DNA of 40,563 nucleotides from a virus (Duplodnaviria; Heunggongvirae; Uroviricota; Caudoviricetes). Positions 17,192 through 40,563 of the stretch are shown here, in pieces. The position numbers and the translations under genes are program-made. The notes under the pieces were generated by a model, which saw only the letters and a list, made by a program, of their open reading frames with translations, did no database searches and had not been told where the DNA came from. The stretch covers positions 1 through 40,563 of IMG/VR virus record IMGVR_UViG_2778261280_000005; one strand, written 5' to 3'. How positions within the stretch are numbered: position 1 is the first letter of the stretch; each line of letters opens with the position of its first letter.

Positions 17192-17840
17192 TGGCAGCAA
17201 ATACCGAAATATTTGGGTAGTTGGCGATCTGCACGGATGCTACACGAACCTGATGAAAAAACTGGAGACGATAGGATTCGACACCAAAAAAGACCTGCTT
17301 ATCTCAGTGGGCGATTTGGTTGATCGCGGTACAGAGAACGTCGAATGCCTGGAATTAATCACATTCCCCTGGTTCAGATCTGTACGTGGAAACCATGAGC
17401 AAATGATGATTGATGGCTTATCAGAGCGTGGAAACGTTAATCACTGGCAGCTTAATGGCGGTGGCTGGTTCTTTAATCTCGATTACGACAAAGAAATTCT
17501 GGCTAAAGCTCTTGCCCATAAAGCAGATGAACTTCCGCTAATCATCGAACTGGTGAGCAAAGATAAAAAATATGTCATCTGCCACGCCGATTATCCTTGT
17601 GACGAATACGAATTTGGAAAGCCAGTTGATCATCAGCAGGTAATCTGGAACCGCGAACGAATCAGCAACTCACAAGACGGGATCGTGAAAGAAATCAAAG
17701 GAGCGGACACGTTCATCTTTGGTCATACGCCAGCAGTGAAACCACTCAAATTTGCCAACCAGATGTATATCGATACCGGCGCGGTGTTCTGCGGAAACCT
17801 CACATTGATTCAGGTACAGGGAGAAGGCGCATGGGCATAA
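17169..17840 (+). CDS. ninI: NinI Ser/Thr protein phosphatase (metallophosphoesterase)
   Basis: Start re-set to ATG 17169 (MRYYERIDG...); phosphoesterase motifs GDLHGC, GDLVDRG, GNHE present. Confidence 0.8.
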
Positions 17841-18349
17841 GAGAACTAAACCTCACCAAAGAGCAGCACGATTGGCTGAATGGCTGGCTTGAACTGTGGG
17901 GCGCATGGGTTTATTCAGGTCGCCTGGAAAAGCGCATGAGCAGCGTAATAGCGAAGTTCATGGAGAGCGTAGAGCCGGGAAGAGTTATGACAAGGCCAAT
18001 GTGTAATGATGATGATGGAATGTTGATTTCTCAGGTCGTCGATTCCGTCATGTACATTGACAAGAAAGCCTTTGGCATCCTCCTCAGCTACTACGCTCAT
18101 GGTTCATCTAAGCGAGCAATTGCATCCTACTATCACGCGACTGCAAAGCCACGCAAGATGTGTGGACGTGGTGGCGAGGGATGGAGAAAACCTTCACTGG
18201 CAACCTGTAGAAACGAAATTGACGACATCCTGAAGGCGTCATTATTTGTTTTATACCAGCCAATGCAAAATGCTTTCAAAATGCGTAAACGTGTTGAGAA
18301 AGTTAAGCATGTTGCTGTTAAAAACCTTGACATGCAATTAGCCATTTAG
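17831..18349 (+). CDS. Q: Late-gene antiterminator Q (phage 82/933W-type family)
   Basis: 172-aa ORF at the end of nin, upstream of lysis genes; [11 protein letters not shown]...[13 protein letters not shown] pattern resembles 933W-type Q by recollection. Confidence 0.65.
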
Positions 18350-18366
18350 CCATAATTAGAGGGTAA

Positions 18367-18408
18367 GCTGCCGTTAGTGACTCTTAAGTTGCAACGGTGG
18401 CTTTTTTT
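18367..18408 (+). terminator. Rho-independent terminator directly downstream of Q
   Basis: 9-bp stem GCUGCCGUU/AACGGUGGC (two G-U pairs) with 17-nt loop, followed by TTTTTTT (18402-18408). Confidence 0.5.
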
Positions 18409-18412
18409 ATTT

Positions 18413-18487
18413 GGGTCAGTCGTATAAAGGTCATTACGGAAGGCTGTTAACCTTCTTATCGTGGTTCGAGTCCACGCTGTCCCGCCA
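18413..18487 (+). tRNA. tRNA-Asn-like (anticodon GUU), phage-encoded
   Basis: Manual fold: acceptor GGGTCAG/CTGTCCC (one T-T mismatch), D-loop with GG, anticodon arm GAAGG-CTGTTAA-CCTTC, T-arm CGTGG-TTCGAGT-CCACG, 3' GCCA; the imperfect acceptor stem lowers confidence. Confidence 0.55.
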
Positions 18488-18492
18488 AACAT

Positions 18493-18568
18493 GCTGGTTT
18501 AGCTCCAATGGTAGAGCAGTCGCCTTGTAAGCGAATGGGTAGCGGTTCAAGTCCGTTAACCAGCACCA
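18493..18568 (+). tRNA. tRNA-Thr (anticodon UGU), phage-encoded
   Basis: Manual fold: perfect 7-bp acceptor GCTGGTT/AACCAGC, D-arm GCTC-CAATGGTA-GAGC, anticodon loop CTTGTAA, T-arm AGCGG-TTCAAGT-CCGTT, discriminator A plus CCA; 76 nt. Confidence 0.75.
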
Positions 18569-18655
18569 TAACTGAGCCGTAGCCACTGACTGTCCTGAAT
18601 TCATCAGTGATAGTTACGCTGCGGCCTTCTACACATGATCTTCGTGAAAGCGGGT

Positions 18656-18690
18656 GGCAGGAGGTCGCGCTAACAACCTCCTGCCGTTTT
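18656..18690 (+). terminator. Rho-independent terminator (candidate tR') downstream of the tRNAs
   Basis: 9-bp stem GGCAGGAGG/CCTCCTGCC with 12-nt loop, followed by GTTTT. Confidence 0.5.
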
Positions 18691-18810
18691 GCCCGTGCAT
18701 ATCGGTCACGAACAAATCTGATTACTAAACACAGTAGCCTGGATTTGTTCTATCAGTAATCGACCTTATTCCTAATTAAATAGAGCAAATCCCCTTATTG
18801 GGGGTAAGAC

Positions 18811-19134
18811 ATGAAGATGCCAGAAAAACATGACCTGTTAGCCGCCATTCTCGCGGCAAAGGAACAAGGCATCGGGGCAATCCTTGCGTTTGCAATGGCG
18901 TACCTTCGCGGCAGATATAATGGCGGTGCGTTTACAAAAACAGTAATCGACGCAACGATGTGCGCCATTATCGCCTGGTTCATTCGTGACCTTCTCGACT
19001 TCGCCGGACTAAGTAGCAATCTCGCTTATATAACGAGCGTGTTCATCGGCTACATCGGTACTGACTCGATTGGTTCGCTTATCAAACGCTTCGCTGCTAA
19101 AAAAGCCGGAGTAGAAGATGGTGGAAATCAATAA
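18811..19134 (+). CDS. S: Class I holin/antiholin (lambda S type, dual start)
   Basis: 107-aa protein [43 protein letters not shown]... essentially identical to lambda S as recalled; Met-Lys-Met dual start; upstream hairpin CCCC-TTATT-GGGG overlaps the SD. Confidence 0.9.
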
Positions 19135-19594
19135 TCAACGTAAGGCGTTCCTCGATATGCTGGCGTGGTCAGAGGGAACAGATAACGGACGACAGAAAAC
19201 CAGAAATCATGGTTATGACGTCATTGTTGGCGGAGAGCTATTCACTGATTACTCCGATCACCCTCGCAAACTTGTCACGCTAAACCCCAAACTCAAATCA
19301 ACAGCAGCCGGACGTTACCAGCTTCTTTCCCGTTGGTGGGATGCCTATCGTAAGCAGCTTGGCCTGAAAGACTTCTCTCCGAAAAGCCAGGACGCTGTGG
19401 CACTGCAACAGATTAAAGAGCGTGGCGCTTTGCCGATGATTGATCGCGGTGATATCCGTCAGGCAATCGACCGTTGCAGCAATATCTGGGCTTCACTGCC
19501 GGGCGCTGGTTATGGTCAGTTTGAGCATAAGGCTGATAGCCTGATTGCAAAATTCAAAGAAGCAGGCGGAACGGTCAGAGAGATTGAGGTATGA
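19118..19594 (+). CDS. R: Endolysin (lambda R-type lytic transglycosylase)
   Basis: 158-aa protein [39 protein letters not shown]... matches lambda R as recalled. Confidence 0.9.
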
Positions 19595-20028
19595 GCAGAT
19601 TAACCGCGATTATCTCCGCTCTGGTTATCTGCGTCATCGCCTGCCTGTCGTGGGCGGTCAATCATTACCGTGATAACGCCATCGCCTACAAAGAGCAGCG
19701 TGATAAGGCCACATCCATCATCGCTGACATGCAGAAGCGTCAACGTGATGTAGCAGAACTCGACGCCAGATACACAAAGGAGCTTGCTGATGCTAACGCG
19801 ACTATCGAAAGTCTCCGTGCTGATGTTTCTGCTGGTCGTAAGCGCCTGCAAGTCGCCGCCACCTGTGCAAAGTCAACGACCGAAGCCAGCAGCATGGGCG
19901 ATGGAGAAAGCCCAAGACTTACAGCAGATGCTGAACTCAATTATTACCGTCTCCGAAGTGGAATAGACAGGATAACCGCGCAGGTTAACTACCTGCAGGA
20001 ATACATCAGGACGCAATGCCTTCGATGA
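19591..20028 (+). CDS. Rz: Rz inner-membrane spanin
   Basis: 145-aa protein with N-terminal TM ([25 protein letters not shown]) and coiled coil; matches lambda Rz as recalled. Confidence 0.85.
19784..19966 (+). CDS. Rz1: Rz1 outer-membrane lipoprotein spanin (embedded in Rz, +1 frame)
   Basis: Embedded ORF with lipobox-like LLVVSAC followed by a proline-rich segment; exact start uncertain. Confidence 0.65.
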
Positions 20029-39405: not shown

Positions 39406-40563
39406 TCACTCCACCTTTTCATCAAGCCAATCTGCCCACCACTGCATCATTTCTCTGCGCTTATCGAGATACTGAGCATGGTTGTAAATTCCACGCACAG
39501 ATCCGCCGTTGGCATGTGCCAGTTGCACTTCAATAGCGTCAGCAGGCCATTCGTGCTCGTTCATAATCGTGCTGAATTCATGCCTGAATCCGTGACCGCT
39601 TTCCAGACCTTCATAGCCGATTTGTTTGATCACAAGTAGCACCGCGTTCTCGCAGATTGGCTTCTTCTTATCGTTGCGCCCGGCAAAAACAAACTCTGAT
39701 ACTGGTTTGGTGATTGAGCTTAGCGTAGTGAGAAGTTCAACCACCTGGTCTGACATCGGGACCACATGAATCTTTCGGCCCTTCATCACACTGGCGTCGA
39801 TGGTGATAATCCTGTTTTCAAAATCGACGTTCTTCCATAGCATGGAACGAAGCTCTTTTGTTCTTAGGGCTGTGTAGCGTAAAACTTTGGTCGCAATGAG
39901 CGATACGATACTTCCTGAAAATGTTGCCAGTGCTTTGTTGAATGCAGGCATCTGGTCTGCTGGAAGGAACGGGAAGTTCTTCTTGCGGTATCCTTTCATG
40001 GCGTCTGCAAGGTCAGGTGCCGGGTTATATTTAGCCCTTCCGGTGACAATAGCGTAACGAAAAACCTCGCCGCATCTTCTGCGGGCTTTGTTGGCTCGCT
40101 CCATTGCACCGCGATCTTCAAATCTGCGGATTACTTCCAGCAGTTGCATCGGCTCAATATCCTGAATTTCAAGGCCGCCGATGATAGGTAAAATGTCGTC
40201 ATCAAACATTTTTGCAAGTTCAGTCGCATACCCTACAGACCAGACTTGCTTCTTGTGCTCGTACCATTCCTTGTAAATCGCACTAAATGAATTGTTGTTA
40301 GACGAAGCTTTTTTCGCCTTTACCGGATCGATGCCAACCGAGATGTCTTTCCTCGCAGTCCATGCCTTATCCCTTGCCTCCTGCAAAGTCATTAGCGGAT
40401 ATTTTCCTACGGTCAGGATTTTCTCCTTACCGTCAATCTTGTAGCGAAGCTGCCATACCTTTTTCCCGGATACAGGGACATAAAGGTACAGGCCATTACC
40501 ATCGAGAAGGCGGTATGGTTTTTCTTTCGGCTTTGCTGCTTCAATCTGCTTAACGGTGAGCAT
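39406..40563 (-). CDS. int: Tyrosine integrase (P4/IntS-type, tRNA-targeting)
   Basis: 385 aa; start codon is the last 3 nt of the window; C-terminal catalytic region with ...HGFRHEF... and ...RGIYNHAQY... (R/H-x-x-R/Y motifs). Confidence 0.9.
   Translation of the reverse strand: MLTVKQIEAAKPKEKPYRLLDGNGLYLYVPVSGKKVWQLRYKIDGKEKILTVGKYPLMTLQEARDKAWTARKDISVGIDPVKAKKASSNNNSFSAIYKEWYEHKKQVWSVGYATELAKMFDDDILPIIGGLEIQDIEPMQLLEVIRRFEDRGAMERANKARRRCGEVFRYAIVTGRAKYNPAPDLADAMKGYRKKNFPFLPADQMPAFNKALATFSGSIVSLIATKVLRYTALRTKELRSMLWKNVDFENRIITIDASVMKGRKIHVVPMSDQVVELLTTLSSITKPVSEFVFAGRNDKKKPICENAVLLVIKQIGYEGLESGHGFRHEFSTIMNEHEWPADAIEVQLAHANGGSVRGIYNHAQYLDKRREMMQWWADWLDEKVE

Follow-up and report, generated by a model that had tools for sequence, protein, structure and literature searches.

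We find that the late operon of the phage studied here begins with two tandem tRNA genes, tRNA-Asn(GUU) followed by tRNA-Thr(UGU), which appear as the last part of a phage-21/Sf6-type late-control module with the order Q, PR', qut, tR', tRNA-Asn, tRNA-Thr. The whole stretch of DNA that was analyzed (IMG/VR virus record IMGVR_UViG_2778261280_000005; 40,563 nt, hereafter the window) belongs overall to a P22-like phage (genus Lederbergvirus), with IME10, several vB_EcoP phages, and Sf6 as its closest records. The pair at the start of the late operon is a correct finding that has already been known and annotated for years, and as it stands it adds nothing to phage biology. Its value is that it correctly annotates the window and marks both the phage-21/Sf6-type late module and the joint of that module with lambda-type lysis genes.

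The late-control module and its tRNA genes

The region from Q to the lysis genes contains the following features.

17831-18349, plus strand: late antiterminator of the Q family (172 aa), of the Sf6/L subtype of phage 21 Q (Pfam PF06530, E = 1.3e-25)
18327-18356, plus strand: late promoter PR' (TTGACA, 18-nt spacer, CATAAT), in overlap with the 3' end of Q; 11/12 consensus match in a promoter scan
18365-18409, plus strand: tR'-type intrinsic terminator that closes the short late leader; bulged hairpin of 17 bp followed by U7, corresponding to Sf6 tR'
18413-18487, plus strand: tRNA-Asn(GUU), found by ARAGORN and Rfam; CCA encoded; U4·U69 and U13·U22 mismatches
18488-18492, plus strand: inter-tRNA spacer AACAT, 5 nt, read directly from the sequence
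18493-18568, plus strand: tRNA-Thr(UGU), found by ARAGORN and Rfam; CCA encoded; C14 instead of the usual A14
18566-18810, plus strand: lambda-type spacer with hairpins at 18576-18625 and 18656-18691; 98.1% identity to lambda from 44942 onward
18811-20028, plus strand: lambda-type lysis cassette S, R, Rz (holin, endolysin, and Rz; Pfam Phage_holin_3_1 and Phage_lysis), with which the protein-coding part of the late operon begins

Run on the whole 40.5-kb window, ARAGORN calls exactly two tRNAs, Asn(gtt) and Thr(tgt), both on the plus strand. Both match the Rfam model RF00005 over positions 1 to 71 of 71, with scores (tRNA-Asn, 55.3 bits, E = 2e-9; tRNA-Thr, 61.5 bits, E = 4e-11) far above the gathering score of 29. 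An initial annotation, made from the sequence alone, had described two tandem tRNA genes with these anticodons, 5 nt apart, in the interval between Q and the lysis cassette and with hairpins on either side; ARAGORN, Rfam, and folding all agree with this description, and the distance is that of the AACAT spacer. The two anticodon loops are 7 nt long with U33 and A37 (CUGUUAA in tRNA-Asn, CUUGUAA in tRNA-Thr), the T-loops are of the GTTCRA type (GGTTCGAGTCC and GGTTCAAGTCC in the two tRNAs), and CCA stands at both 3' ends. In E. coli, the identity set for Asn consists of G34 U35 U36 and G73, and that for Thr of G1-C72, C2-G71, G35, and U36. With anticodon GUU and discriminator base G73 in tRNA-Asn, and with GC at the start, GC at the end (G1-C72, C2-G71), anticodon UGU, and discriminator base A in tRNA-Thr, both genes fit the E. 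coli-type Asn and Thr sets at the sequence level. Position 14 of tRNA-Thr (18506) is C in the window and T in six IMG/VR loci; A14 is almost universal and is present in the tRNA-Thr of P1, N4, and E. coli thrU.

With respect to the control elements, Q of the window is 82% identical to phage 21 Q, with a divergent C-terminal half, and its Sf6 homologue is annotated as "similar to phage 21 Q". PR' aligns with the annotated PR' of Sf6, which the Sf6 record calls "nearly identical to phage 21 late promoter", and with the phage 21 pQ promoter. Over the stretch that runs from the -35 hexamer to where the leader begins (promoter plus Q-binding region), however, the sequence is of the Sf6/L type, unlike that of phage 21, and the Q-binding element is thus not the same as that of phage 21. 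As the Q-binding region follows Sf6 and L rather than phage 21, the module is, judged by this region, the Sf6/L subtype of the phage-21-type late-control module. When window positions 18290-18365 are compared with phage 21 (locus L004), Q and the promoter/Q-binding region differ, and the terminator and tRNAs downstream are identical. Such divergence of Q and promoter beside an identical terminator and identical tRNAs would fit a co-varying swap of Q/QBE specificity inside a shared module, and a different Q/QBE specificity has been argued for the L-type region (PMC8022706).

A terminator had also been proposed between Q and the tRNAs, and one is indeed found at 18365-18409, as a stable hairpin (18365-18403) followed by U7 (18402-18408) with a folding energy of -21.1 kcal/mol (z = -4.5), a stability that none of 200 shuffled sequences reaches. 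Its sequence is identical to that of the phage 21 terminator, and the annotated 50-nt terminated "aRNA" of phage 21 maps to about 18363-18412 of the window, ending at the first base of tRNA-Asn. The U-tract ends 3 to 4 nt before tRNA-Asn. A promoter of the tRNAs' own was rejected, since the promoter scan found none and there is no room for one between the U-tract and tRNA-Asn; the sole promoter-like plus-strand site just upstream of the tRNAs is PR'. Given the lack of promoter space between tR' and the tRNAs, and with PR' as the sole upstream promoter, the tRNAs should need the Q-antiterminated transcript, and we infer that their transcription is Q dependent and takes place at the onset of late expression.

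Downstream of the pair, a second hairpin (GGCAGGAGGT/ACCTCCTGCC, 18656-18685) is followed by GTTTTG, and the 132-nt segment around it has a z-score of -5.7. It is weaker than tR', and a simple terminator scan called neither hairpin under its loop and U-tract rules, for which reason folding against shuffled controls was used instead. Given a U-tract of just four U's and the lack of a call in the terminator scan, we grade the second hairpin (18656-18691), where the initial annotation had placed a second terminator, as terminator-like only. The stem carries a mismatch in Sf6 and BTP1. Identity to lambda from 18566 onward means that this hairpin is lambda-derived DNA, and a literature search on additional lambda late terminators found nothing. 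The same 132-nt segment of lambda-derived DNA includes a strong extra hairpin (18576-18625), conserved with lambda, which separates tRNA-Thr from the terminator-like one.

Identity to phage 21 stops and identity to lambda (98%) starts at 18566-18571, exactly at the 3' end of tRNA-Thr. Judged by this switch, the end of tRNA-Thr is a mosaic joint between the 21-type control module and lambda-type lysis genes. The region as a whole runs from an Sf6/L-type promoter/Q-binding region through a segment identical to phage 21 (tR' to tRNA-Thr) to lambda-type sequence from 18566. The Sf6 homologues of the lysis cassette are annotated as lambda S107/S105, R, and Rz.

Distribution of the pair and related tRNA arrangements

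The pair is widespread among enterobacterial phages and prophages. Full-length matches to a 461-nt segment, at no less than 96% identity, come from 28 phage records, most of which have tRNA-Asn and tRNA-Thr annotated, and 163 nt spanning both tRNAs are 100% identical to phage 21. The pair is 98 to 100% identical in Sf6, SfI, and BTP1. Taken singly, tRNA-Asn is 100% identical to the copies of phage 21, Sf6, and L, and tRNA-Thr is 100% identical to those of phage 21 and Sf6, 83% to that of N4, 76% to that of P1, and 66% to E. coli thrU. We observe the pair, annotated there as tRNAs, in 369 of 5,426 complete E. coli genomes. The RefSeq annotation of Sf6 lists PR', qut, tR', tRNA-Asn, and tRNA-Thr ("similar to phage 21"), followed by lambda-like S, R, and Rz; the window has the same element order and spacing, and the layout of BTP1 is the same as that of Sf6. 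Papers on SfI (PMC3636060), phage L (PMC8022706), and epsilon34 describe such tRNAs at this place in Sf6, ST64T, PS3, phage 21, and Salmonella prophages. The placement had been described as not a P22 feature, which is right for P22 itself, a phage with no tRNA genes (PMC8022706), and for the many P22-like phages that lack the pair, but not for Sf6, BTP1, SPN9CC, L/ST64T, and many prophages, which have tRNAs here.

A plain 21-mer scan of IMG/VR with the D-arm of tRNA-Asn yielded 119 loci. In 104 of these, tRNA-Asn is followed by tRNA-Thr. In seven it is followed by tRNA-Gly(UCC), with a chimeric tRNA-Thr in between that is not called, in one by both the chimeric tRNA-Thr and tRNA-Gly, in one by tRNA-Phe, and in four by nothing further (Asn only); two loci have no tRNA called at all. 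The spacer, obtained for 113 of the 119 loci, is AACAT in 50, AATAT in 50, and different in the other 13. Rfam matches to the small RNAs STnc100 and rydB occur a few hundred bases upstream of tRNA-Asn in two related prophage loci (L110, 441-1014; L040, 258-435), and the window has no match to either.

The chimeric tRNA-Thr genes occur in eight loci (L107, at about 1279-1509; L040; L018; L080; L089; and three others), where they follow the same tRNA-Asn. Their first 26 nt are phage type; the remaining 50 nt match E. coli thrU exactly in L107 and closely in the other seven (e.g., L040), and a glyT-like tRNA-Gly(UCC) follows 3 nt after tRNA-Thr. Such a composition shows that the phage tRNA gene has recombined with the host thrU-tyrU-glyT operon. 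A different variant is seen in the L/ST64T lineage (phage L, locus L005, 886-957; PS3; ST-87; ST160), where the second tRNA is annotated as Leu(UAA). It keeps the acceptor, D, and T arms of tRNA-Thr and has a different anticodon arm; the copy of phage L receives no ARAGORN call and only 42 bits from Rfam. Such a gene may reflect either an identity switch or decay.

The lysis genes that follow the pair also vary, being lambda type in the window and Sf6 and 21 type in the DE3 prophage of E. coli Origami2-DE3 (L132, 1926-3951). This prophage carries a 100% identical pair after a Q21-type gene and before 21-type lysis genes, so Origami2-DE3, a laboratory expression strain that is among the 369 genomes with the pair, has one additional tRNA gene each for Thr(UGU) and Asn(GUU).

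Several other phages offer comparable arrangements. Phage 21 has a terminator and two tRNAs 100% identical to those of the window, and differs in the promoter/Q-binding region and in the C-terminal half of Q. Shiga-toxin phages of the 933W type carry the late-leader tRNA genes ileZ-argN-argO. These occupy the same position, after Q, PR', and tR' and before the first late genes, and have the same proposed role of supplying tRNAs for host-rare codons; they encode Ile and Arg rather than Asn and Thr isoacceptors, and it is by isoacceptor, not by alignment, that we set them apart as unrelated sequences. The P1 pair, with genes 2 nt apart, and the Asn-Ser-Thr cluster of N4 have the same two anticodons in the same order as the window. 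Their Thr genes are 76 to 83% identical to that of the window, but their Asn genes only 56 to 59%, which points to a different lineage, and the P1 pair lies downstream of C1-controlled ban promoters, not in a Q-controlled late leader.

Codon supply and counter-defense as possible roles

We consider it fairly probable that these tRNAs, made late and dependent on Q, add decoding capacity for ACA and for AAC/AAU. RNA polymerase starting at PR' would reach the tRNA genes only once Q has made it terminator resistant, which would time their synthesis to the start of the late phase. Release of the tRNAs from the 5' end of the late transcript, with CCA already encoded, would then fall to host RNase P and 3' trimming, and the host enzymes AsnRS and ThrRS would charge them. 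The pair would thereby add capacity for ACA, a host-rare codon that is twice as frequent in the phage, during bulk synthesis of virion and lysis proteins, and at the same late time for AAC/AAU, the structural proteins being Asn rich. The same conclusion was reached in analyses of SfI (PMC3636060), L (PMC8022706), and Sf6 (PMC13015707).

Codon frequencies were compared with a host sample of 46 annotated E. coli K-12 genes.

Window late genes: ACA, 18.2 per 1000 codons; Asn codons, 54.6 per 1000
Window early genes: ACA, 13.9 per 1000 codons; Asn codons, 39.7 per 1000
Host sample: ACA, 8.6 per 1000 codons; Asn codons, 40.6 per 1000

The suggestion in the initial annotation that the genes could supply codons enriched in late genes finds support for ACA in late genes versus the host sample (odds ratio, 2.1; P = 3e-8); for Asn codons, the support is modest (P = 2e-5). 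Within the phage, ACA makes up 31% of Thr codons in early genes and 29% in late genes, and early genes, which are about as ACA rich, would be translated before the tRNAs appear, which counts against supply. A further weakness is that the coat gene, whose product is made in the greatest amount, uses ACA sparingly (3 of 42 Thr codons); among its Asn codons, AAC accounts for 21 of 24. Since E. coli has four tRNA-Asn genes, the supply of this tRNA is unlikely to be limiting. The authors of the SfI study saw no Asn codon bias and left the tRNA-Asn gene without explanation (PMC3636060). Moreover, P22 and many of its relatives manage without these tRNAs, which also counts against a supply benefit. 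A literature search for tRNA expression in BTP1 returned only unrelated mitochondrial genome papers.

A second reading, tentative and on balance rather unlikely, is that the phage tRNAs, differing from those of the host at a nuclease cleavage site, would escape cutting and keep late translation going. The PARIS nuclease AriB has three main targets, among them host Thr(UGU) and Asn(GUU) (PMC12409363), and AriB cleavage is abolished by U39->A and reduced by A41->C and U16->C (Belukhina et al.; PMC12409363). The pair thus consists of AriB-target isoacceptors, and both are substituted at cleavage-site positions 39 to 41 relative to the host tRNAs: in this region, tRNA-Thr of the window has UAAGCG together with A16, versus UAAUCA and U16 in host thrU, and tRNA-Asn has UAACCU versus UAAUCC in host asnT. 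G39 is present in all Thr(UGU) genes of P1, N4, T5, and Mulock. In addition, Asn and Thr genes are adjacent or nearly so in three unrelated groups (21-like lambdoids, P1, and N4), although the Asn genes are only 56 to 59% identical, and this co-occurrence looks like convergent assembly. That protection from PARIS-like nucleases is the main reason for retention of the pair of the 21/Sf6-type lambdoids, independently assembled in P1 and N4, nevertheless seems to us unlikely. Diverged tRNAs usually differ at stem positions 39 and 41 anyway, which makes the substitutions weak evidence, the tRNA-Asn of P1 has a host-like optimal site (UAAUCA), and the eight natural chimeras carry a host-type Thr anticodon arm. 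The tRNAs would also be made late, not early, and to our knowledge no PARIS trigger is known for P22-like phages.

T5 provides the closest comparison. Its Lys, Thr, and Asn variants jointly neutralize PARIS (PMC12409363), and the tRNA-Lys variant was necessary for escape (PMC11464382, PMC12409363). As in the window, Thr(UGU) and Asn(GUU) of T5 are substituted at AriB-site positions 39 and 41, but ARAGORN finds no tRNA-Lys(UUU) in the window, the window genes are only 57 to 61% identical to those of T5, and the window is from a temperate phage with predicted late expression. A literature search found no paper linking lambdoid tRNAs to PARIS. If a shield against such nucleases were the role of the pair, many temperate enterobacterial prophages, including the DE3 of Origami2-DE3, would carry a tRNA-based counter-defense, and the tRNA-Asn gene, which codon supply alone explains poorly, would be accounted for as well. 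The lead that remains here is the retention of exactly these two isoacceptors, Asn(GUU) and Thr(UGU), now known as PARIS targets, by so many coliphages that are unrelated to one another.

Recombination and the integrity of the two genes

It is also conceivable, but improbable, that the tRNAs bring little benefit and persist through their physical tie to the Q/PR'/tR' module, their sequence serving mainly as a joint at which phage modules, and host tRNA operons, recombine. This reading draws on the position of the pair, with lambda-type DNA starting exactly at the 3' end of tRNA-Thr and the same tRNAs standing ahead of lambda-type, 21-type, and P22-type lysis cassettes, and on its absence from many P22-like phages. 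It also draws on the variants of the pair, namely, the eight loci in which a phage/host thrU chimera is followed by a glyT-like gene and the second tRNA of phage L, with its rewritten anticodon arm and lower score. The chimeras lend some substance to the idea of a recombination joint, though not as att sites. What is kept speaks against this reading: compensatory changes preserve both cloverleaves, including those of a 91 to 92% identical copy in a Klebsiella phage; in more than 100 loci, hardly any variation is seen in the anticodon loops, T-loops, and CCA ends; and even the chimeras retain every acceptor pair by means of G·U wobbles.

The compensatory changes were scored on alignments of distinct variants, which for tRNA-Asn numbered 14, including the 91% identical copy of Klebsiella phage Mulock. 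For tRNA-Asn, compensatory double changes are seen at five stem pairs (the covariation tool counts six, since it includes the mostly unpaired 4:69), and for tRNA-Thr, compensatory changes are seen at ten pairs; for neither tRNA does any of 500 shuffles attain the covariation score that was observed. Sliding the pairing partners by 1 to 3 columns leaves 20 to 54% paired cells, versus 90 to 96% for the true structure, across the two tRNAs.

These data also bear on the T-T mismatch that had been noticed in the acceptor stem of the first tRNA. The mismatch is real and corresponds to U4·U69; a further one, U13·U22, is present in the D stem. U4·U69 is unpaired in 12 of the 14 distinct tRNA-Asn variants, and rare variants regain a wobble pair at 4:69. 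Because U4·U69 is kept while five other pairs covary, it is a conserved trait and not decay, and tRNA-Asn is a maintained gene. That the mismatch makes tRNA-Asn a pseudo-tRNA or a tRNA of changed identity, or that the pair serves as secondary attachment sites for integrases, as the initial annotation had proposed, is very improbable: although both mismatches exist and rare variants restore a wobble, the 55-bit score, the conservation, the covariation of neighboring pairs, and the GUU anticodon with G73 speak against the former, and an identity of only 59 to 66% to host asnT and thrU speaks against the latter, even though tRNA-Thr does recombine with thrU. The integrase, moreover, is encoded at the window's far end (39406-40563, minus strand), where ARAGORN finds no tRNA-like attP, and no third tRNA-like site is found in the window.

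At the left edge of the window, an open reading frame on the plus strand (1-1248) reaches the end of the sequence; its product is a membrane protein of the LacY/sucrose-permease-like kind. In related phage records the gene bears the label "sucrose permease, major facilitator superfamily", and it is probably a prophage cargo gene or adjacent host DNA.
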